DNA from: a bacterium
GTDB taxonomy: Bacteria > Cyanobacteriota > Sericytochromatia > S15B-MN24 > UBA4093
Direction of reading: 5' to 3'
Assembly (NCBI GenBank): GCA_035285805.1
Contig: JAYKJE010000021.1
Span: 156,956-220,955 of the forward strand
Length of the DNA stretch: 64,000 nucleotides
A program made the position numbers and the translations under genes. Of this stretch, positions 12,244-41,814 are shown piece after piece (position 1 is the first letter of the stretch; each line of letters opens with the position of its first letter). The notes under the pieces were generated by a model. That model saw only the letters and a program-made list of their open reading frames with translations. It did no database searches and had not been told where the DNA came from.

Positions 12244-12320
12244 CGGGGCGTAGCGCAGCTTGGTAGCGCATCTGCTTTGGGAGCAGAGGGTCGTGGGTTC
12301 GAATCCCACCGCTCCGACCA
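12244..12320 (+). tRNA. tRNA-Pro (anticodon TGG)
   Basis: Cloverleaf folded by hand. Acceptor CGGGGCG/CGCTCCG, D-arm GCGCAGCTTGGTAGCGC, anticodon stem-loop TCTGC-TTTGGGA-GCAGA, T-arm GTGGGTTCGAATCCCAC, 3' ACCA encoded. Confidence 0.85.
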
Positions 12321-12325
12321 GTCGC

Positions 12326-12397
12326 GCGGGTGTAACTCAGCGGTAGAGTTCCTGCCTTCCAAGCAGGATGTCGTGGGTTCGAATCCCATCGCCCGCT
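12326..12397 (+). tRNA. tRNA-Gly (anticodon TCC)
   Basis: Acceptor GCGGGTG/CGCCCGC, D-stem ACTC/GAGT, anticodon stem-loop CCTGC-CTTCCAA-GCAGG, T-arm GTGGGTTCGAATCCCAT. CCA not encoded. Confidence 0.85.
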
Positions 12398-12414
12398 CTC
12401 ACAGGTCGCTCACG

Positions 12415-12450
12415 CCGAGCCCTCCTCCTGGAGGGCTCGGTTGTTGTTCG
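12415..12450 (+). terminator. hairpin (GAGCCCTCC-tcc-t-GGAGGGCTC) plus TTGTTGTT after the tRNA pair
   Basis: Perfect 9-bp GC-rich stem followed by a T-rich stretch immediately downstream of tRNA-Gly. Confidence 0.45.
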
Positions 12451-12569
12451 AGGACCTCGGGTTCCTGCACGGCTTTGAGAAAATACCATTAAGTTTCCGT
12501 TTGCCCCCGTAAGCTTGCGTTTCGGCGGGGAAAAAACAGGCATGTCGGGACCGGTCAACGGAGAGTGTC

Positions 12570-13367
12570 ATGAGCAGTGCCATCCACGTCATTCCTGATC
12601 CTGCCCAGCTTCTGGCCGAGGCACGTGCTGCGATCGTCAAGAGCCGGTACTTCCAGCACGGCAGGACGGACCGCTACGGCCATGTCGTGGGGTTGCGCGA
12701 GTATCCCGCCGGACGCGTGCCCACGGATCATCAGGTTCATCACTACGACCAGGCCGGGCGAGTCATCCTGTTCGAGAAATACACGAGAGATTTCTCGAAG
12801 CCCACGTATCGACTGTATCGCTATGCTGGAAACGTCATGAACGAGGCCATCTGGATCGACCGCTATGGCCACATCGAACATCATCACTGCTTCCAGTACG
12901 ACCGGGTCACCGGTCAGATGGTCTGGCGGGCCGAGTACCAGCCCGACGGGACGCTGTTCTACAGCGTCGCATCCACCTACGACTCGGTCGGAAACCTCAT
13001 CGAGGATGCCTATTTCGACCGGAATGACGTGTTCGTGAAGCGGGAGGCTTACGAGCACGACAAGGCGGGAGATGTCACCCGCGAACGTTTCTATGACCAC
13101 GAGAATGCCCTGGTGGGGTTCAACACGTTCACCTACGACAAGCAGAGGCGGCTGACCGCTCGCATCTGGCATGGACCGGATGGCGTGCGACGTTCCCGTT
13201 TCGCCTACACCTACGATCGCCAGGACAGGCTGTCTCGTCTCACCGTGTATGGTCCCACCGACAAGAATCCTCTGGTCCAGGAGTTCACGTATGACGACGT
13301 GGGTAGCGTCACCCGGGAACGCTGGATGGAGGCCTCGGGACAGGTCGTCAAGGAACTCGTCTTCTGA
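12570..13367 (+). CDS. YD-repeat (Rhs/teneurin-type repeat) protein, 265 aa, no signal peptide
   Basis: At least six YD-type repeats (HYDQAGRV, YDSVGNL, YEHDKAGDV, YDKQRRL, YTYDRQDRLSRL, YDDVGSV). No Rhs core or toxin domain. The AT-richer region 12476-12545 upstream is a likely promoter. Confidence 0.7.
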   Translation: MSSAIHVIPDPAQLLAEARAAIVKSRYFQHGRTDRYGHVVGLREYPAGRVPTDHQVHHYDQAGRVILFEKYTRDFSKPTYRLYRYAGNVMNEAIWIDRYGHIEHHHCFQYDRVTGQMVWRAEYQPDGTLFYSVASTYDSVGNLIEDAYFDRNDVFVKREAYEHDKAGDVTRERFYDHENALVGFNTFTYDKQRRLTARIWHGPDGVRRSRFAYTYDRQDRLSRLTVYGPTDKNPLVQEFTYDDVGSVTRERWMEASGQVVKELVF

Positions 13368-13402
13368 GGCCTGCCGGTCTCACATTTCCCCCTGGAGGAG
13401 CC

Positions 13403-14479
13403 ATGAGCGATATCTCGGGTATCGATCCCATCAAACAGACCGTCAAGATCAATGCGGCGGCGATCGCCGCCGCCGCGGCGTCCGCGCAAGCCGTGCCCGG
13501 GGCCACCGAGGCCCCTGCCCGCGATCAGGTCAGCATCCAGACATCCGATGCGTCCGACCTGGGCCTGGGGGAAGCCGCAGGTCCCGGGGGGCAGCGCGGG
13601 CGCATCCTGCCCGAGGCCGCTCCTGCCGATCTCATGTCGGCCATCGGTAGCGCTCCCGTCGCGAGCGCGATGCCGGGGATGAGCGCTCCAGGCAAGTCGA
13701 TCGAGGTGCCACGACCCAAGCCGGCCCCCCCCATCCAGTCCACGCCTCGGTCGGACGTGCCCTCGAGCGTGTCCTACAGCTCTCCTTCCTCGGTCAAGCC
13801 CGAACCGCGCTATCTCGACGTCCAGGGCTGCACCGGCATGGGGGCCGCCTCGGGGAAGTCTTACAAGGTGCTCGAGAGTGATGCGATCGCCATGTACTCG
13901 CTGCTCAAGGAGAAGCCCCTCTGGAAGATGGATGAACTGAAGTACGCCCTCCAGGCCTACTTCGGGATCGAGGCCGAGGTGACCAAGGTGGATGGCCGCA
14001 ACGCCATCGTCGGGACCGACGGACGCATCATCGCTGTCGACACGGAGGGCAACGGGGCGATCGACATCAACGATCTCCAGTTCGGTCAGGCCCTCTCTGC
14101 GGCAGGCGTCGACATCTCGCAGATCAAGAGTGCCAGCGAGATGATGAAGGACCGTCTGAACGCGATGAATCTCGCGCTCAAGGTGTCGGAAGATCTCCAG
14201 AAGATGAACCAGGAGATCGCGGAACGCGAGATGACGATGGCCTCCATCCGAGCCAGCGCGGAAGCCGCCGATGCGAAGGCACGCGGTGCGGCTGCCGCGG
14301 TCGCAGCTTCCGGCCTGACCTCGGTGACCCCGTCCTCGAATCCGGGTTCTTCGTCGTCCTCGTCCTCGTCTTCGCCGTCGCCAGGGGCCTCGTCCGCCGG
14401 CGCGGCGGCCGCTGCGGCGGGGGCGTCGGCCGCCGCAGCACCGTCGGCACCTTCCGGCGGTGGTAAGGGAATGGCCTGA
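13403..14479 (+). CDS. hypothetical protein (358 aa) with Ala/Ser/Pro-rich N- and C-terminal low-complexity regions
   Basis: ORF 35 nt after the YD-repeat gene. Its stop overlaps the next start (ATGA). The C-terminus is SSSSSSSSPSPGASSAGAAAAAAGASAAA. Confidence 0.55.
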   Translation: MSDISGIDPIKQTVKINAAAIAAAAASAQAVPGATEAPARDQVSIQTSDASDLGLGEAAGPGGQRGRILPEAAPADLMSAIGSAPVASAMPGMSAPGKSIEVPRPKPAPPIQSTPRSDVPSSVSYSSPSSVKPEPRYLDVQGCTGMGAASGKSYKVLESDAIAMYSLLKEKPLWKMDELKYALQAYFGIEAEVTKVDGRNAIVGTDGRIIAVDTEGNGAIDINDLQFGQALSAAGVDISQIKSASEMMKDRLNAMNLALKVSEDLQKMNQEIAEREMTMASIRASAEAADAKARGAAAAVAASGLTSVTPSSNPGSSSSSSSSSPSPGASSAGAAAAAAGASAAAAPSAPSGGGKGMA

Positions 14480-14757
14480 TGGATACTCCGCTGCTCACCC
14501 GTGCCGAGGTCGTCGAGCGCATCGAGCGCTTCAATGCCTGCCTGGCTCGCGAACACGAACTCAAGAAGAAGCTGGTCACCATGAAGATCCGCGGCGATTT
14601 CCAGCGCGTGCGCGAGATGATGTCCGAGCACGACGCCCTCATCGCCGAGATCAGTCGCATCCAGCTCGAGGAGATGGTGCCCATCATCGTGGAGCTGGAC
14701 CGTTTCACCAAGGCAGGCCTCGCCGTCCTGGAAGCCTACAACCGTGACAAGTCGTAA
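14479..14757 (+). CDS. hypothetical small helical protein (92 aa)
   Basis: Start overlaps the upstream stop (ATGA). The downstream rSAM gene begins 14 nt before its stop, so it is translationally coupled on both sides. Confidence 0.5.
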   Translation: MDTPLLTRAEVVERIERFNACLAREHELKKKLVTMKIRGDFQRVREMMSEHDALIAEISRIQLEEMVPIIVELDRFTKAGLAVLEAYNRDKS

Positions 14758-16588
14758 AGCCCTGCTGGTCTTTCCCCCGCAGTGGACCCCCCAGAATCCG
14801 CACTTCGCCCTGCGCGCTCTGGCGGGTCACCTGCGGGCCAACGGTATCGAGGTCGCCGTGCGCGACCTCAATGTCGAGTACTACGATTCCATCCTGACGC
14901 CGGAAAGCCTCTCGCTGGCCCGGGATCGGATCCGTCTGGACCTGGAGTACCTCGGATATCAGACCATCATCCGGCAGATGATCGACGAGCAGAGCCACCA
15001 GGCGGACGTCGACGCAGCTCGGTTCATGGCCATGAAGCGATTCGAGGACAACCATCCCGGTGCCCTCGATCGCCTGCCGGGCCTGATCCTCGACGCGAAG
15101 GAGACTCTCCGCGATCCACGCCGCTATTACAACCCGGATTACCTGATCGACGCGTTCCGGACCATCGATCTGGCGTTGCAGGCCCTGTCGTTGCCGTACC
15201 ATCCGGCCAACCTCTCGTACATCTACTTCGACCAGCCGGATGCCCGGTTCACGATCCGCACGGCGCACGAGTTCGCCAGCTCACCCACGGCGAACATGTT
15301 TCATGCGTTCTTCGAGGCGCAGATCGATTCGCTCCTGGCCGAGGAGGCATCCTACATCGGCATCTCGATCAACTCGTTCTCCCAGGTGCTGCCGGGCCTC
15401 ACGCTGGCGCACATGCTGCGGAAAGCCGCGCCGCCCGGTGTCCATATCGGACTGGGGGGCAATCACCTGGGGCGCGTCAAGGAGACGTTGCTCGAGAGAC
15501 CCGATTTCTTCGAGTTTTTCGCCCACAGTCTCGCGACCAGCGAGGGCGAGCAGCAACTGGTCCACATGGTCCAGGCCCTCGTGGACGGACGGAGCCTCGA
15601 GGATGTCCCCAACATCTTGTATGTCGGCGAGGACGGCGTGCCCCGGGCCTCGAAGGCGGCGAAGCCGCCGCAGATGGACCGGATCGGTCACCAGGACCTG
15701 GCCGGTCTGCCCATGGACCTCTACTTCTCCCCCGAGCCCTTGCTGACCATCCAGGCCAGCAAGGGGTGCTACTGGGGTAAATGCTCGTTCTGCGATTCGT
15801 TCTTCGGAGTCGATCTCGACTTCAAGTCGATCGACAAGCTCGTCGCCGAGATCCGTCATCTCAAGGAGACCTACGGCGTCCGGTTGTTCCAGTTCATCGA
15901 CGAGGCGCTCCCACCGAACTACATGGAGGCGATGGCCCGACGCTTCATCGAGGAGAAGCTGGACATCCAGTGGTTCAGCAACGGACGCCTCGAGACGGGC
16001 TTCACCCCGGAGCTCATGAGCCTCCTGCATGAGGCCGGTCTGCGCATGGTCCTGTGGGGATACGAGACGGGGGCGCCGCGCATCCACAACCTCATCAAGA
16101 AGGGGGTGGCGTTCAGCCGGCGCCATGACATCCTTCGCGGGGCGGCAGAGGCGGGCATCTTCAATTTCGCGTACATCTTTTTCGGCTTTCCCTCCGAGAC
16201 CCTCGAGGAGGCAAACGCCACGATCGATGCCATGTGCGAGAACACGGACATCATTCACGCGTACGGACGCTCGGTCTTCACCCTCGGCAAGCAGAGCCCG
16301 CTCTACGCCGATCTGGAGAAGAACGGAGACATTCTCGAGGCCGTCGTGGACATCGAGGATCTGTCGTCCAACATCTCGTTCAAGACCCGTGGTGGCATGT
16401 CCGACGAGGAACTGCATGCGGTCATGAAATCGTGCACCACCCGGTGCGCCGAGGCCTATGACCACGCGCTGTGGTTCTACCTCCGGAGCCGGGAGAACAT
16501 CCACTACTACCTGGCCCGGTTCGGGGCCGAGCACGTGCGGAAGGCCACGTTCAAGCGATTCCATGCCCAGCCCGTCGAGCAGGCCTGA
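14744..16588 (+). CDS. B12-binding domain radical SAM protein (class B rSAM-like) with variant CX4CX2C cluster motif
   Basis: N-terminal B12-binding-like region (KALLVFPPQW...). Fe-S motif KGCYWGKCSFCDSF. Elongated TIM-barrel-like rSAM core. 614 aa. Confidence 0.8.
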   Translation: MTSRKALLVFPPQWTPQNPHFALRALAGHLRANGIEVAVRDLNVEYYDSILTPESLSLARDRIRLDLEYLGYQTIIRQMIDEQSHQADVDAARFMAMKRFEDNHPGALDRLPGLILDAKETLRDPRRYYNPDYLIDAFRTIDLALQALSLPYHPANLSYIYFDQPDARFTIRTAHEFASSPTANMFHAFFEAQIDSLLAEEASYIGISINSFSQVLPGLTLAHMLRKAAPPGVHIGLGGNHLGRVKETLLERPDFFEFFAHSLATSEGEQQLVHMVQALVDGRSLEDVPNILYVGEDGVPRASKAAKPPQMDRIGHQDLAGLPMDLYFSPEPLLTIQASKGCYWGKCSFCDSFFGVDLDFKSIDKLVAEIRHLKETYGVRLFQFIDEALPPNYMEAMARRFIEEKLDIQWFSNGRLETGFTPELMSLLHEAGLRMVLWGYETGAPRIHNLIKKGVAFSRRHDILRGAAEAGIFNFAYIFFGFPSETLEEANATIDAMCENTDIIHAYGRSVFTLGKQSPLYADLEKNGDILEAVVDIEDLSSNISFKTRGGMSDEELHAVMKSCTTRCAEAYDHALWFYLRSRENIHYYLARFGAEHVRKATFKRFHAQPVEQA

Positions 16589-16589
16589 C

Positions 16590-18173
16590 GTGGCGCCGGG
16601 GCGATCGGTCTCGTTCTCCCTCCGGGTGGCATGTGCCATCCTCCTGGTCACGGGATGCACGACTGCGGTCCTTCCAGGCACGGGGTCGCCATCCCGCGGG
16701 CAGACACCATCATCGGTGGGCGAGGACGCACGTTCCGTGTCCGTCTCGGGGCAGGTTCTCGGGGAGGATGGAGTCCCCGTGGCCGGGGTGCGCATCCGGA
16801 TCTATCCGGCACCGGAGGATCCGCTCAAGACGGTGGCCCCGCTTCGCACGGTCGCTCCCCTGAAAAGCGTGGCTCCCTACCGCGCCCTCGCTGCCACCGA
16901 CGCCCGTGAGACCGTGACCGATGAGTCCGGGCAATACCGGATGGCGGGGCTTGCCGGGGGGCCCTGGGCCGTGCTGGCCGAGCAAGGTGATCGCCTCAAG
17001 GCCTTTGCCCGGATCGAGGTGGGTGATGGCGCCCCTCCGGGCGTCTCCTTGCGCCTTCAGCCGACCGGTGGCATCCGCGGGGTGGTCACGGCACCCGACC
17101 AGCCCCTCGTGAACGATTTCACGCGGGTGGAAGTGTTCGTCCCCGGTTTACCGTACGTGGTCCGACCTTCCGAGAACGGGACCTTCCTGATCACCGGATT
17201 GCCCGTCGGAGATCACGTGCTGCGCGCTTACCGCGAGGGCCTCGGTGAGGCCGGACGGGGCGAGGTCAGGGTCGAACCCGGCGGGGTCACGGACGTCGGG
17301 GCGATGGTGCTCACCCGGAGGGTGCCGCGTCTGACTCGCCTCGATCCCCCGTACGTGCCAGAAGGCGGCGTCTTGCGGCTGGTCGGCGAGAACCTGGGCA
17401 TCCAGACGGGAGATCCCTTCCAGGTGTACATCGACGGGAAGGTCGTCCGTGGCGCCAGGGCCATCGATGCGGCCACGATCGAGGTGCCAGTCACGTCGGG
17501 CGTGGCTTCCGGCAAGGTCTTCGTCACGGTGGGCTCCCTCGAGAGCAACGAACTGCCGTTCCAGAAGATCGTCGACCTCGCGATCGGCGTTCCGGACGGT
17601 GCTCTCGCCCTGTCGCTCGGGCAAACGCGACGGATTCCCACCGCCATCGGGATTCCGGACGATGGCTACGAACCGGTACACCTGGCCGTCGGTCCGGTCT
17701 GGACCCTCTCGGGAACCGCGGCTACCATGGACGCGGATCGGGTGCTGCGGGCGGTCCGGGAGGGGGACGGCGAACTCTCCCTCACGTGGGGGGAGCTCCG
17801 GGCCACCCGGAACATTCGCGTGTATCCGTCGGATTCGTGGACACCCTCTGCGCTCGTCGGGCAGCATCTCGTCTTGGGGGATGACGATGGACCCGCGGAT
17901 CGAGCGTTCCTGCGCGGCCCGTCGCAACTCGTCTTCGATGCTCGCGGGCGTCTCATCCTCGCAGATGAAAACCCTTCGGAAGACGGCGAGACCTTCGACC
18001 CCGGTCCGGAGGCGAGCCGGCTTCGCATCCTGGACGATGGGGTCCTGCGCCCCTGGAGCGTGCACCTCCCGGGCGGAGAGCCCTTCTCGTTCGTTCAACC
18101 TCGCGGCATGGCCTCGCGCCGGACGGTGGCGTGCTGGTCGCAGACGCCGGTTTGCAGCAAGTCTACCGCGTGA
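16590..18173 (+). CDS. lipoprotein with two CarboxypepD_reg-like domains, an IPT/TIG domain and NHL repeats (5' portion; reading frame appears disrupted near 18110)
   Basis: GTG start 2 nt after the rSAM stop. Signal peptide with lipobox LLVTGC. Motifs VSGQVLGEDGVPVAGVRIRIY, TDESGQYRMAGL (CarboxypepD_reg), GGVLRLVGENLG (TIG), and PSQLVFDARGRLILAD (NHL). The track's ATG at 16458 lies inside the rSAM gene. Confidence 0.7.
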   Translation: MAPGRSVSFSLRVACAILLVTGCTTAVLPGTGSPSRGQTPSSVGEDARSVSVSGQVLGEDGVPVAGVRIRIYPAPEDPLKTVAPLRTVAPLKSVAPYRALAATDARETVTDESGQYRMAGLAGGPWAVLAEQGDRLKAFARIEVGDGAPPGVSLRLQPTGGIRGVVTAPDQPLVNDFTRVEVFVPGLPYVVRPSENGTFLITGLPVGDHVLRAYREGLGEAGRGEVRVEPGGVTDVGAMVLTRRVPRLTRLDPPYVPEGGVLRLVGENLGIQTGDPFQVYIDGKVVRGARAIDAATIEVPVTSGVASGKVFVTVGSLESNELPFQKIVDLAIGVPDGALALSLGQTRRIPTAIGIPDDGYEPVHLAVGPVWTLSGTAATMDADRVLRAVREGDGELSLTWGELRATRNIRVYPSDSWTPSALVGQHLVLGDDDGPADRAFLRGPSQLVFDARGRLILADENPSEDGETFDPGPEASRLRILDDGVLRPWSVHLPGGEPFSFVQPRGMASRRTVACWSQTPVCSKSTA

Positions 18174-18850
18174 GTGCCGACGGCGAGGTGACCCTCGTGG
18201 CCGGATCGGGCGATGAAGGCTTCACGGACGGGCCGGCACTCGCGGCGCGTTTCTCGAATCCCTGGGCGATCGCCGTGGCGTCCGATGGCCGGATCGCCGT
18301 GAGCGATCTCGGCAACCATCGCATCCGGCTCATCGTGAACGGGGCCGTCTCGACTCTTGCCGGGACGGGTCAGGATGCGCTCGTCGATGGGCCTGTCGGA
18401 ACGGGGTGCCTGCATCAGCCGTACGGGCTGGCATGGGCTCCTGATGGCGTCCTCTGGAGCTCGGATGTGGGGGGGAACTGCCTGCGAACCATCGATCCAG
18501 CGGGCGACATCCGGACCGTCAGCCGCAAGGTGGGGCTACTCGACGGGCCCCTGCTCGATGCCCTGTTTGCGTCTCCCACGGCTGAAGGTCCGCTCGGCGA
18601 GGTCGATTTTCGCTGGCCATACGGCATCCGTTTCGACCGGGAGGGCACACTCTGGGTCTGCGACTGGCAGAGTACCCTGATCCGGCGCGTGAAGGACGGC
18701 CTCGTGTCGACCGTCAAGAGACGGGACAGGGAGTTCGTCGAAGGCTTGCCCTTTCAGGGAATCACGGGGAACTACGCGATCGACTTCGATCCGGACGGTC
18801 ACGCGGTCGTCAACAACGTCTGGTGGCACACGATCATCCGTCTGCAGTGA
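18131..18850 (+). CDS. NHL-repeat protein, probably the 3' continuation of the 16590 lipoprotein gene after a frameshift
   Basis: NHL repeats (APDGGVLVADAGLQQVYRV, PWAIAVASDGRIAVSDLGNHRIRLI, PYGLAWAPDGVLWSSDVGGNCLR, PYGIRFDREGTLWVCDWQSTLIRRV). The frame is open upstream to 17969 and, joined with the upstream frame, reconstitutes a perfect NHL repeat. Confidence 0.65.
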   Translation: MLVADAGLQQVYRVSADGEVTLVAGSGDEGFTDGPALAARFSNPWAIAVASDGRIAVSDLGNHRIRLIVNGAVSTLAGTGQDALVDGPVGTGCLHQPYGLAWAPDGVLWSSDVGGNCLRTIDPAGDIRTVSRKVGLLDGPLLDALFASPTAEGPLGEVDFRWPYGIRFDREGTLWVCDWQSTLIRRVKDGLVSTVKRRDREFVEGLPFQGITGNYAIDFDPDGHAVVNNVWWHTIIRLQ

Positions 18851-18856
18851 CAGGTC

Positions 18857-19861
18857 TCAGGTTGCCGAGCGCACGACCAGGTAGCTCTTGACGAGGCGTC
18901 CGTCCGTGCGAGTCTCGGCCTTGCCTGGGACGAGCATGTGGCTCGAACCCCCACCGTCGAGTGCGTAGGCTTCCACGGCGCCGAGGCGCTTCAGCAGGAG
19001 CGCGCCCTCGGCCATGTTGCCGCCGGCCCCGCGATTGCTGCCCTCGCCCAGCGTCACGGCCAGGAGTCGTCCCTGGGCATCGAGCCCCACGAAGGTCCGG
19101 GCGATCGAACTGGCCAGGTCGACGTTCGGGAAGCTCCGGTCGGCCACGCCCCGGTCGAGCCGAGCCCGGAATGCGCCGGTTTCGACGTCGCGTTCGAGCC
19201 GCACGGCCTCTTCGGGACCGAACAGGCGCCCCAGGCCACCGATGAAGCCCTTCACGTCCTGGCGAGCCAGACCCGACTCGACCAGCCCACCCTTCACGAA
19301 CCGGAGGCTGCCATCCTCGAGGGAGGCCAGAGACCAGCGGCGATCGCTGATCTGGTCGTAGCCGCGATTGGGATTGTCCTCGTCGAGAACCGCTTTCCCC
19401 AGGCCCACCAGATCGCCGTAGGTGGCTTCGCCCTGACCCATGCCGAAGAAGGTCGCGTTGACGGCAGCGAGCATGCCCGGAATCTGCCGGATCGCCGAGG
19501 GGGGGACGCCCGTCTTGCCGTCGTAGAAGCCGGCTTCTACCTTCACCTGCCGGGGATCGATCAGCAGCACCCGTGCCAGGGAGCCGTCCGCGGTGCGACG
19601 GGTATCATCCAGCCAGAGGCCCGGGACGACCTCGACCCGCTTGCGGGTGAAGCCCATGAAGCCCCCCATCCAGTCCATGAACCGGAGCACGGGAGAGGGC
19701 CATTCGAAGCGAAGCAACCGTTCGCGCGTGCTCTGGCTCGTTCCGAAGCGAGCGATGTCGCGGGCGGGGGCGCTGGCTGCCCGGAAAGACCCTCCGGACG
19801 CTCGTGGGGCTACTCCTGACGGATGGGCTGTCCGGGGCGGGGCATCGAGACGGGACACCAT
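18857..19861 (-). CDS. phosphodiester glycosidase family protein (NAGPA/DUF2233-like)
   Basis: Family-typical LDGGGSS motif and FFGMGQGEATYGDLVG region. Start uncertain (the N-terminus of the ORF is Arg/Ala-rich, so an internal Met start is likely). Confidence 0.65.
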   Translation of the reverse strand: MVSRLDAPPRTAHPSGVAPRASGGSFRAASAPARDIARFGTSQSTRERLLRFEWPSPVLRFMDWMGGFMGFTRKRVEVVPGLWLDDTRRTADGSLARVLLIDPRQVKVEAGFYDGKTGVPPSAIRQIPGMLAAVNATFFGMGQGEATYGDLVGLGKAVLDEDNPNRGYDQISDRRWSLASLEDGSLRFVKGGLVESGLARQDVKGFIGGLGRLFGPEEAVRLERDVETGAFRARLDRGVADRSFPNVDLASSIARTFVGLDAQGRLLAVTLGEGSNRGAGGNMAEGALLLKRLGAVEAYALDGGGSSHMLVPGKAETRTDGRLVKSYLVVRSAT

Positions 19862-19947
19862 GCGGGACGACCTCCGGATTCAACGAACCTTCACGCCGTC
19901 TTATCTATCGCACACTCTCCCGGTGATCTTGCCTCCCGGAATTCACG

Positions 19948-19983
19948 CGGCGAGCCGGTTTCCGTCAGGAAACCGGCTCGCCG
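19948..19983. terminator. perfect 16-bp inverted repeat hairpin (CGGCGAGCCGGTTTCC-gtcag-GGAAACCGGCTCGCCG) between the glycosidase and grxD genes
   Basis: Seen directly in sequence. No flanking U-tract on either strand. Likely a transcription stop or RNA-stability element downstream of grxD. Confidence 0.4.
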
Positions 19984-20006
19984 GGAATCGCAGGGGCGTG
20001 ACGTGC

Positions 20007-20375
20007 TCAGGCGGGGTTCTTCTCGAAGGCCGCCTTGAGGACTTCCACGATCTCACCGGATTCGGCCATCGGATCGAGGATGTCCGTATCACCGTAGAAC
20101 TCGCCACCGATGAACACCTTGGGGAGCGTTGGCCAGTCGGTCATGCGCGAGAGGAGGTTGCGCTTCGGCATGTTGTGCAGGATGTCGATGACCTTGAACG
20201 GATGACCGTACCGCTCGAAGTAGACGACCGTCTCGCGGGTGAAGCCGCACATGGGCATCTCGCGCGTGCCCTTGCCGTAGATGAGGACCGTGTTCTCGGC
20301 GACCTCGCGACGGATCTCGGCTTCGAGGACGTCCTCGGAAACCGTGGGGGCCATCTTGAAGAGTTCTTCGCTCAT
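20007..20375 (-). CDS. grxD: monothiol glutaredoxin (Grx4/GrxD family)
   Basis: CGFT active site in place of the classical CGFS, and a GG motif. GGAAGG ribosome-binding site upstream of the ATG at 20375. The classic bolA-grxD pair. Confidence 0.85.
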   Translation of the reverse strand: MSEELFKMAPTVSEDVLEAEIRREVAENTVLIYGKGTREMPMCGFTRETVVYFERYGHPFKVIDILHNMPKRNLLSRMTDWPTLPKVFIGGEFYGDTDILDPMAESGEIVEVLKAAFEKNPA

Positions 20376-20425
20376 GAGGGGGACCTTCCTCTGAAGGGGG
20401 GTGGGCGAGGGGAGGGGCGAGCCGC

Positions 20426-20665
20426 TCAACCTTCGGACCGGGGAATCGCCCGGATCTCGAGGGCGTGGATGCGCCCATCTTCCATCGGTTCACGGAGGGC
20501 GGCGTACACGAGCCGCTGGCGGTCGAGGGGTTTGACGCCGGTGAAGGCGGATGACGTGACGGCCACCCGGAAGTGATCCGACATGCCCGTCTTGTCGAGG
20601 ACCTCGACCTCGGCATCGGGCATGGCGGCGCGGATGTGGGCGGCGAGTTCCTCGGGCGCGATCAT
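20426..20665 (-). CDS. bolA: BolA family protein
   Basis: 79 aa, BolA-like helix-turn-helix region (SDHFRVAVTSSAFTG). Overlaps the grxD start by 4 nt. Confidence 0.8.
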   Translation of the reverse strand: MIAPEELAAHIRAAMPDAEVEVLDKTGMSDHFRVAVTSSAFTGVKPLDRQRLVYAALREPMEDGRIHALEIRAIPRSEG

Positions 20666-20817
20666 CGGGGCGCTTCCTTCCGTGCTGGATGCGATCGTGG
20701 CGTGTGCCAGCGTTCATGGTAAGGACCGGTGGTGCCCGTGTCAAAGGTCGGGGTGAGGCGGCCTCGCGGCCCTTGCGCGGATGCCGCTCTTCCGCTACAG
20801 TAGATGAGCGTGCTCTG

Positions 20818-20893
20818 GCGCTCGTAGCTCAGGGGATAGAGCAGCCGCCTTCTAAGCGGCTGGTCGCTGGTTCGAATCCAGCCGGGCGCGCCA
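20818..20893 (+). tRNA. tRNA-Arg (anticodon TCT)
   Basis: Acceptor GCGCTCG/CGGGCGC, anticodon stem-loop GCCGC-CTTCTAA-GCGGC, T-arm GCTGGTTCGAATCCAGC, CCA encoded. Confidence 0.85.
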
Positions 20894-20907
20894 GACTCTC
20901 GATTCAT

Positions 20908-20981
20908 GGTGGGTGTAGCCAAGTGGTTAAGGCACTGGGTTGTGGTTCCAGCATACGTGGGTTCGATTCCCATCATCCACC
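20908..20981 (+). tRNA. tRNA-His (anticodon GTG) with encoded G-1
   Basis: G-1 plus acceptor GTGGGTG/CATCCAC, anticodon stem-loop CTGGG-TTGTGGT-TCCAG, T-arm GTGGGTTCGATTCCCAT, discriminator C. Confidence 0.85.
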
Positions 20982-21050
20982 CCTCGAGAAGCCCTGACTC
21001 CAGTCAGGGCTTCTTCCCTTGTCTTGCGCGTACATGGAAAGGATCCCCGC

Positions 21051-39549: not shown

Positions 39550-41694
39550 TCAGGAGTCGCTGATGGCCATCAGGAATTCGGCGTTGGACTTGGTCCGGCT
39601 GAGGCGATCGGCCAGGAACTCGGTGACCTCCGCGGTGTCACCTGCGTCCATCGTCTTGCGCAGGATGCGCTGCTTGCGCAGCTCTTCCGGGGAGAGCAAG
39701 AGCTCTTCCTTGCGCGTGCTGCTGCGCTTGATGTCGATCGCCGGGAAAATTCGACGATCGGCCAGCCGGCGATCGAGCGTGAGCTCGGAGTTGCCGGTCC
39801 CCTTGAACTCTTCGTAGATCACCTCGTCCATCCGCGAACCGGTGTCGATCAGCGCCGTCGCGATGATCGTGAGGGATCCCGACCGCTCGAGCTTGCGAGC
39901 CGCACCGAAGAAGCGCTTGGGCTTGTGCATCGCGTTGGGGTCGAGACCGCCCGAGAGGGTTCTCCCCGAGGGAGGCATGGCCGAATTGTAAGCCCGGGCC
40001 AGCCGCGTGATGGAATCCAGCAGGATCACGACATCGTGGCCGAGTTCGACCATCCGCTTGGCTCGTTCCATGACCAGCTCGGCGACCCGGACGTGATTTT
40101 CGGGCAACTCGTCGAAGGTCGAGGCGATGACCTCACCCTTGATCGAGCGCTGCATGTCCGTGACTTCCTCGGGGCGTTCGTCGATCAGCAGGGCCATCAG
40201 GTGCACTTCCGGATGGTTGTCCGTGATCGAGTTGGCCACCTGCTTGAGCAGCGTGGTCTTGCCTGCCTTGGGCGGCGACACGATCAGGGCGCGCTGGCCC
40301 TTGCCGAGCGGATTGAACAGGTCCATCAGCCGCATGCTGAGGTTGCTCGCGGTGGTCTCCAGGCGAAGGCGCTCGCACGGGTAAATCGGCGTGCGATTTT
40401 CGAAGGGGACGCGCCGCATGGCCTGGTCAGTGGGTTGTCCATTGACCGTTTCGGGACGGACGAGCACCTGGAACTTCTCACCCTCGCGGGGCGACCGGAT
40501 CTCACCCGCGACGATGTCGCCGGCCCAGAGGTCGTGCCGACGGATCATGCCCTGGCTGACGTAGATGTCGTCCGGCGACGGCAGATATTCGGAGACCCGC
40601 AAGAAACCGTATCCCTCACCGAGAATCTCGAGCACCCCGGAAGTGCGGACCGGCGTCCCTTCGGTCTGCCGGGTCTGGAGGACACGGATGACGAGTTCAC
40701 TGCGCCGCATCTTGCGGTAATTCCAGATACGCAGGGCCCGTGCGAGCTCGTGGAGCTCGGTGATGTCCATCTGAGGGACTGCCTGCGGATCGAACTGGAC
40801 CTCCGGGATTTCCGCATCCAGCCCCTGTTCGGCCATGATCGCTTCGTGAAGTTCCCGAGCCTCGCGGAGCTCGCGCATCTCGCGTTCGTTGGCCCGGTTG
40901 CCCCGGTTGTCGTCACGGAAGCCTGGATGAGGACGTCCGCCTCCACGGTTGTCCTGTCCGCGGCCACCGCGATCGCGTCCCCTGTCCCGATCCCGATCCC
41001 GATCCCGATCCCGGTCACGGTCACGGTGGCGTCCACCTTCCCGGAATCCCTGCTGCTGGCGGCCTTCACGCCCTCCCTCGGTGCGCTGTCCTTCCGGACG
41101 GCCTTCACGGCCTCCCTCGGTGCGCTGTCCTTCCGGACGGCCTTCACGGCCTCCTTCGGTGCGCTGTCCTTCCGGACGGCCTTCGCGGCTTCCCTCGGTG
41201 CGCTGTCCCTCCGGACGGCCTTCACGGCTTCCTTCGGGGCGCTGTCCCTCCGGGCGTCCTTCACGGGTGCCTTCCGGACGTCCGGCGCGGGGACCTTCGG
41301 CACGCTCGGTCTCCCTCGGTGCCCGCTCGCGACTTTCACCACGTGGCGGTCGTGAGGGCTGCGTCCCTGGCTCACCGTCGCTTTCGGGTCGCCTGACCGC
41401 GTTCTGGGCAGGAGCAGAACCTCCAGCCGGGGCCACTGCGGATTCCGTGGCAGGAGCGGACTCCTTACGTCGGGAGGTGCGCTGGGTGCGGGCAGGAGGG
41501 GTGGATTCAGCTGCAGCGGGGCTCTGTTCGGTCACGACAGGGGCCGAGGCAGCCTCGGCCTGAGCGGCCTGCCGGGCCTGAGCGGCGCGCGTGGGGCGTC
41601 GGCGGCTGCTGGTGGCAGGTTGGGTGTCCGGAAGGGCAGCAGAGCCGGGGGCCGTGGCGTCGGACGGAGCCGGACGCGTCGCGGAAGTATCCAA
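39550..41694 (-). CDS. rho: transcription termination factor Rho with about 290-aa N-terminal R/E/G-rich low-complexity insertion domain
   Basis: C-terminal about 420 aa is canonical Rho (CSD-like RNA-binding domain, Walker [13 protein letters not shown] loops, [20 protein letters not shown]). The N-terminus contains ([13 protein letters not shown])x5 and (RD)x8. Confidence 0.95.
40985..41265. repeat. in-frame tandem repeats inside rho: about five copies of a 39-bp unit (GGCCTTCACGGCCTCCCTCGGTGCGCTGTCCTTCCGGAC) and a (CCCGAT)n hexanucleotide run
   Basis: Seen directly in lines 40981-41280. Encodes the [13 protein letters not shown] and RDRDRD repeats of the Rho N-terminal insertion. Confidence 0.8.
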
Positions 41695-41814
41695 GAGCCA
41701 GTCTCTCGCTTTCGAAGAGGAGATCCCCCTGAAGTCGCAGGCTTGAAATCAGATGTCAGGGGAAGTGACCACGGTCACCGTGCCACGCTAGCACGGCTGA
41801 CCTCAGTACGTCAA

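Follow-up and report, generated by a model that had tools for sequence, protein, structure and literature searches.

Two adjacent open reading frames in an uncultured Sericytochromatia genome read as one NHL-propeller lipoprotein gene split by a single lost base

Two overlapping open reading frames lie on the plus strand of a 64-kb stretch of Sericytochromatia DNA (64,000 nucleotides, hereafter the window; G+C about 67%), raising the question of whether they are two genes or one and, if one, how it came to be interrupted. Frame 0 starts at GTG 16590, 1 nt past the stop codon (16586-16588) of a radical-SAM gene, and reaches its stop at 18173, the end of the frame reading ...PFSFVQPRGMASRRTVACWSQTPVCSKSTA before the stop codon. 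In frame 2 the sequence stays open from 17969 to a stop at 18850, reading ...SRHGLAPDGGVLVADAGLQQVYRV..., and the earliest start codon there is GTG 18131. Reading base 18113 twice, which amounts to inserting one base, joins the two frames through the junction FVQPRGMALAPDGGVLVADAGLQQVYRV and yields a repaired gene of 753 codons plus stop from GTG 16590. The frames, stops and junction described in a first-pass annotation of this DNA were all present on re-reading the sequence. That annotation further proposed that the two frames form one gene of about 750 codons, broken at 18108-18113, where one missing base, possibly a C in GGCC, would restore a textbook NHL repeat. Our analysis leads to the same gene model: 16590-18850 reads as a single gene for a 753-aa exported lipoprotein, split by one lost base. 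The features of this model are listed below.

16590..16658 (+): start and lipoprotein signal peptide, read from the sequence; L001 (ATG), L004 and P0023 agree
16740..17310 (+): two CarboxypepD_reg (transthyretin-like) domains, Pfam PF13620 in two stretches
16590..18113 (+): 5′ part, read in frame 0: codons 1-508, up to ...FSFVQPRGMA (sequence, omega)
18111..18113 (+): lesion, the Ala508 codon without its third base (nucleotide alignments)
18114..18173 (+): out-of-frame tail of the truncated product, SRRTVACWSQTPVCSKSTA and TGA, absent from all orthologues
18113..18850 (+): 3′ part, read in frame 2: codons 509-753 and the stop codon, covering NHL blades 2-6 (sequence, omega)
17889..18850 (+): six-bladed NHL beta-propeller domain (AlphaFold model of P0001, Foldseek, Pfam NHL)

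Whether orthologues are split at the same place had been named as the comparison to make, and none is. The repaired junction ...FVQPRGMALAPDGGVLVAD... is identical in every intact orthologue recovered, namely the proteins P0001, P0023 and P0025 and the loci L005 and L003. Searching proteins with the repaired translation recovered P0001, a single 704-aa protein with 90% amino acid identity and the junction FSFVQPRGMALAPDGGVVVADAGLQRIYRV. Two further members of the same 90% cluster are intact at about 90% amino acid identity: P0023, with 753 aa and the N-terminus MAPGRSVSF, and P0025, with 704 aa. At greater distance, the Candidatus Sericytochromatia metagenome-assembled genome (MAG) L003 encodes the protein in one uninterrupted frame at 63% amino acid identity and reads ...APRGMALAPDGHVLVVD... 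through the junction. The gene is also intact in L005 (Ga0208788_1000889), which is 97.2% identical in nucleotide sequence to window positions 13602-20401; the Lake Mendota Sericytochromatia MAG L004 covers the 5′ part only. The out-of-frame tail at 18114..18173 occurs in no orthologue. It does form the end of P0002, a 100% identical match from the same protein search, which is the truncated 478-aa call of the window itself. Since no relative is split and the junction is as predicted, in four independent lines of data, the two frames are one gene.

The first approximately 90 codons of the gene are mosaic. Over window positions 16590-16860 (L005 2989-3260), which span the signal peptide, the linker and the beginning of domain one, identity of the window is 75.6% to L005 and 91.1% to L001, and over the rest of the lipoprotein gene it is 96.7-98.1% identical to L005 and 90-92.8% identical to L001. 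This pattern suggests that recombination exchanged the allele at the 5′ end in the L005 lineage.

Nucleotide alignment places the break at a single codon. Relative to L001 and L005, the window has a 1-nt gap at 18112/18113, where the third (wobble) base of codon Ala508 is missing, as the aligned junctions show.

Window: GGC ATG GC- CTC GCG CCG GAC
L005: GGC ATG GCG CTC GCG CCG GAC
L001: GGC ATG GCC CTC GCC CCT GAC
L003: GGG ATG GCC CTG GCT CCC GAT

Judging from these alleles, and depending on which allele is ancestral, the lost base would be either a C from a CCC run or a G flanked by C's. The Ala508 deletion is the sole net indel across 6.8 kb in the full indel list against L005, and the sole frame-breaking indel within a gene across 13.2 kb against L001; the remaining gaps relative to these two sequences are compensating pairs in divergent stretches, intergenic, or in a low-complexity gene. 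The site had been described as a homopolymeric G/C context, a description that hardly fits, as GGCC consists of two 2-nt runs. Pfam NHL repeats lie on both sides of the break, and the lesion cuts the six-bladed propeller between blades 1 and 2, at the first strand of blade 2 (P0001 residue ~459).

The repaired gene encodes a predicted lipoprotein with the signal peptide MAPGRSVSFSLRVACAILLVTG followed by Cys23, the last residue of a lipobox VTGC (read from the sequence; pattern [LVI][ASTVI][GAS]C). The same lipobox is present in L001, L004 and P0023, and L003 carries LVAC. Downstream, Pfam identifies CarboxypepD_reg (PF13620) in two stretches with E values of 8e-14 to 1.4e-15, above the curated cutoff, and the C-terminal region matches NHL (PF01436) at 57.6 bits (cutoff 20) and TEN_NHL at 35.4 (cutoff 27.1). 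The overall layout is thus signal peptide and lipobox, two CarboxypepD_reg domains, two beta-rich segments and a six-bladed NHL propeller. A TIG label given in the first-pass annotation found no support, with no PF01833 match at E <= 1 for the whole protein or at E <= 10 for the isolated segment; the AlphaFold model of that segment is of low confidence, and an Ig-like fold is neither shown nor excluded there. The AlphaFold model of the orthologue P0001 assigns a pLDDT of 85-95 to residues ~385-704 and low confidence to the N-terminal domains (shallow alignment). Foldseek matches the P0001 propeller to PknD, the TRIM71 NHL domain, Pizza6 and the teneurin NHL domain, with E values down to 1e-13 and target TM-scores of 0.8-0.85, and the propeller is accordingly modelled as a closed, six-bladed NHL fold. 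The sensor domain of Mycobacterium tuberculosis PknD (PDB 1rwi/1rwl) is likewise a six-bladed NHL propeller (TM-score ~0.8), and the teneurin-like TTR and NHL scaffold (PDB 9ifo) likewise places transthyretin-like domains N-terminal to the propeller. Unlike either, the protein described here is a predicted lipoprotein, and is neither a kinase nor a YD-shell toxin.

Two further features of the protein were observed. The order of TTR-like domains (CarboxypepD_reg, with a weak TTR_TEN1-4 match) followed by the NHL propeller across 16740-18850 recalls the N-terminal scaffold of teneurins; the best PDB fold match is a 'Teneurin-Like Protein' (9ifo), and a weak YD/RHS-repeat protein is encoded further upstream in this cluster. 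The first CarboxypepD_reg domain also contains, at window positions 16840-16900, an inserted short peptide repeat, PLKTVAPLRTVAPLKSVAP, made of three PL[KR][TS]VA units; it is kept in all relatives including L003 and is not a DNA tandem repeat by TRF.

Is the missing base a real mutation, or is it missing only from the data? The first-pass annotation had left the cause between an error, a pseudogene and a programmed slip; of these the programmed slip falls away, as shown below, and an assembler artefact is unlikely. L002, which Logan assembled from run SRR19514065, matches window positions 12370-20852 at 100% identity, over 8,483 bp with 0 mismatches and 0 gaps, and it carries the deletion and the same two gene calls as the window. 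A k-mer assembler such as that used by Logan outputs only k-mers that occur in reads. An identical Logan assembly built from such k-mers therefore means that the deletion is present in reads and did not arise as an assembler artefact. The ends of L002 fall inside tRNA genes (tRNA-Gly and tRNA-Arg) and are repeat-induced assembly breaks, as expected from accurate reads assembled at short k. We consider it probable that the deletion is an ordinary, recent inactivating loss of 1 nt that is real in the sampled population.

The principal alternative is a read-level or consensus sequencing error, in which the organism's gene is intact and the base is missing just in the data; we judge this unlikely, although it retains more weight than any other competing explanation. 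Only a single base is involved, and the downstream frame is perfectly kept, with signatures of purifying selection, no stops and no second lesion. In addition, the strain has been seen in one run only: when P0002 and the radical-SAM and NAGPA proteins were looked up by exact sequence, each returned only SRR19514065, so that both assemblies probably rest on the same reads. A literature search for this run found nothing. Against an error stands the identical sequence obtained by an independent assembler over all 8,483 bp. The context is also not a long homopolymer: in the zone where both frames are open the longest run is 4 nt and the deletion site itself is CC, and systematic indel errors are rare at such a site. 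Finally, the comparisons over 13.2 kb (L001) and 6.8 kb (L005) contain no other frame-breaking indel, and a coarse screen of the 64-kb window, consisting of a self-trained codon-usage gene call and Pfam analysis of overlapping same-strand pairs, found no other split genes. The two other same-strand overlaps of more than 20 nt in the window each involve two unrelated genes that are complete and match Pfam families over their full length. With no other frame-breaking indel or split gene, the assembly is not indel-prone, and we rejected that explanation because neither the indel lists against L001 and L005 nor the whole-window gene call shows a second break. On balance, we infer a biological deletion rather than a read-level error.

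Selection on the 3′ part bears on the age of the lesion. In the repaired frame, comparison with L001 and L003 gives omega values of 0.21 and 0.165, respectively, for the 3′ part, and of 0.28 and 0.27 for the 5′ part. No stop codon or second indel was found in the 3′ part (18113-18850). With L001 as outgroup, the window branch downstream of the lesion carries 3 nonsynonymous and 2 synonymous substitutions, and the intact L005 branch carries 4 and 3 over the same region, few substitutions in either case. We thus found neither relaxed selection nor secondary lesions downstream of the break, where omega is no higher than upstream. This absence of decay would fit a very recent mutation and, equally well, a sequencing error; if real, the lesion is very recent.

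A genuine deletion could also be one allele of an on/off polymorphism, with the NHL lipoprotein lost recently in only part of a freshwater Sericytochromatia population. We regard this more specific reading as improbable. If it were true, intact and broken alleles would coexist in the sample, and the pressure behind the loss could come, for instance, from phages or grazers that target a receptor on the cell surface.

Could the two frames instead be translated separately, as an N-terminal lipoprotein and a 239-aa NHL protein that begins at GTG 18131 or by reinitiation at GTGA 18170-18173? NCBI annotates two coding sequences, and at 18170-18173 a frame-2 GTG overlaps the frame-0 TGA in an arrangement that could allow termination-reinitiation. 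However, no relative is split, and the break would divide a propeller whose six blades form a closed fold. The first piece is exported, but a signal peptide is lacking from the second, and the GTGA is also found in the intact L001 and is thus coincidental. The 20 nt before 18131 (gcctcgcgccggacggtggc) contain no GGAG, GAGG or AGGA core, in agreement with the first-pass remark that this GTG has no obvious ribosome-binding site, and no such core precedes 18170; neighbouring genes do carry one. Given the intact relatives, the lack of a signal peptide on the second piece and the coincidental GTGA, we rejected a functional split as very unlikely.

Least credible of all is a device by which a fraction of molecules or cells would still yield the full-length protein, whether programmed recoding (-1 ribosomal frameshifting or transcriptional slippage) or a phase-variable contingency tract. 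The shift needed is indeed -1, and where both frames are open there are two in-frame X XXY YYZ heptamers, A AAC CCT at 17969 and C CCG GGC at 18068. Both, however, lie off the lesion, 40-140 nt upstream, where a shift would swap 13 to 48 conserved residues for out-of-frame sequence; CCCGGGC moreover recurs in frame in ordinary genes of the window, and since every relative has the protein in a single frame, no recoding signal is conserved. No slippery heptamer is present at the junction itself, where the sequence is G GCC TCG, and no stimulatory RNA structure was detected across 18075-18200 (folding energy -54.2 kcal/mol; mean of shuffled sequences -53.1; z = -0.30). The resemblance to the programmed -1 frameshifting of dnaX and IS3-family transposases is confined to the -1 direction and the overlap of two frames; a slippery heptamer where the frame changes, a stimulatory structure and conservation in orthologues are all missing here. 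We rejected programmed -1 frameshifting on the misplaced heptamers, the fold z of -0.30 and the single-frame orthologues, and a phase-variation or slippage tract on the finding of no homopolymer of at least 5 in the zone where both frames are open and no TRF tandem repeat in 16400-19000.

Under the preferred reading of a genuine deletion, the consequences for the protein can be proposed as follows. Loss of the Ala508 wobble base would be followed by 19 out-of-frame codons and the stop at 18173, giving a truncated lipoprotein with the N-terminal domains and propeller blade 1 only; the C-terminus of this product reads ...GMASRRTVACWSQTPVCSKSTA. The remaining five blades (18113-18850) have neither a signal peptide nor a Shine-Dalgarno core before GTG 18131, and for this reason their synthesis probably fails or takes place in the wrong compartment. 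Propeller function would be lost either way. The agreement of two assemblers places the deletion in the reads, and it most likely arose as a real inactivating mutation of very recent date.

In the public databases the locus appears as two ordinary proteins. MEB3186894.1 (478 aa, 'carboxypeptidase-like regulatory domain-containing protein') is the 5′ piece, its C-terminus being the out-of-frame tail, and MEB3186895.1 (239 aa, 'hypothetical protein', locus tag VKP72_05580) is the 3′ piece from GTG 18131; both are on a 390,049-bp MAG contig of Candidatus Sericytochromatia. These two records are fragments of one 753-aa lipoprotein and are to be merged or flagged as a frameshifted pseudogene, with the corrected gene model 16590-18850, 753 aa, frameshifted at 18113. 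Frameshift-disrupted genes are a familiar kind of event, but the public annotation does not flag this one and lists two proteins. Like other frameshift-disrupted bacterial and MAG genes, it differs from intact orthologues by a single-nucleotide indel, consists of adjacent same-strand frames that each match half of one protein, and has a second frame with no ribosome-binding site or signal peptide of its own. It differs from them in showing no decay yet and in being annotated as two ordinary proteins, not as a pseudogene. If the mutation is real, an uncultured Sericytochromatia lineage has lost a surface beta-propeller protein very recently, a routine event that offers no mechanistic novelty, and the main value of the finding is curatorial.

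The public start sites also deserve attention. NCBI and JGI calls begin at an internal GTG (16737, not 16590, in the window; 10001, not 9854, in L001), dropping a 49-residue N-terminus that contains the lipoprotein signal peptide; only P0023 (753 aa) includes it.

The lipoprotein gene is the last of a conserved same-strand gene cluster at window positions 12570-18850 (+), which has the same order in L001 and L005. Its other products are a 265-aa protein with sub-threshold RHS/YD-repeat matches, two proteins of 358 aa (low-complexity) and 92 aa, and a radical-SAM enzyme of 614 aa that weakly matches a B12-binding domain; the lipoprotein start follows the stop of the radical-SAM gene at the 1-nt spacing given above. 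Pairs of tRNA genes flank the region, Pro-Gly at 12244-12398 and Arg-His at 20818-20983. Elsewhere in the window, an open reading frame for the Rho termination factor (39550-41748, minus strand) has a ~320-residue N-terminal extension before Rho_N, with a low codon-usage score.
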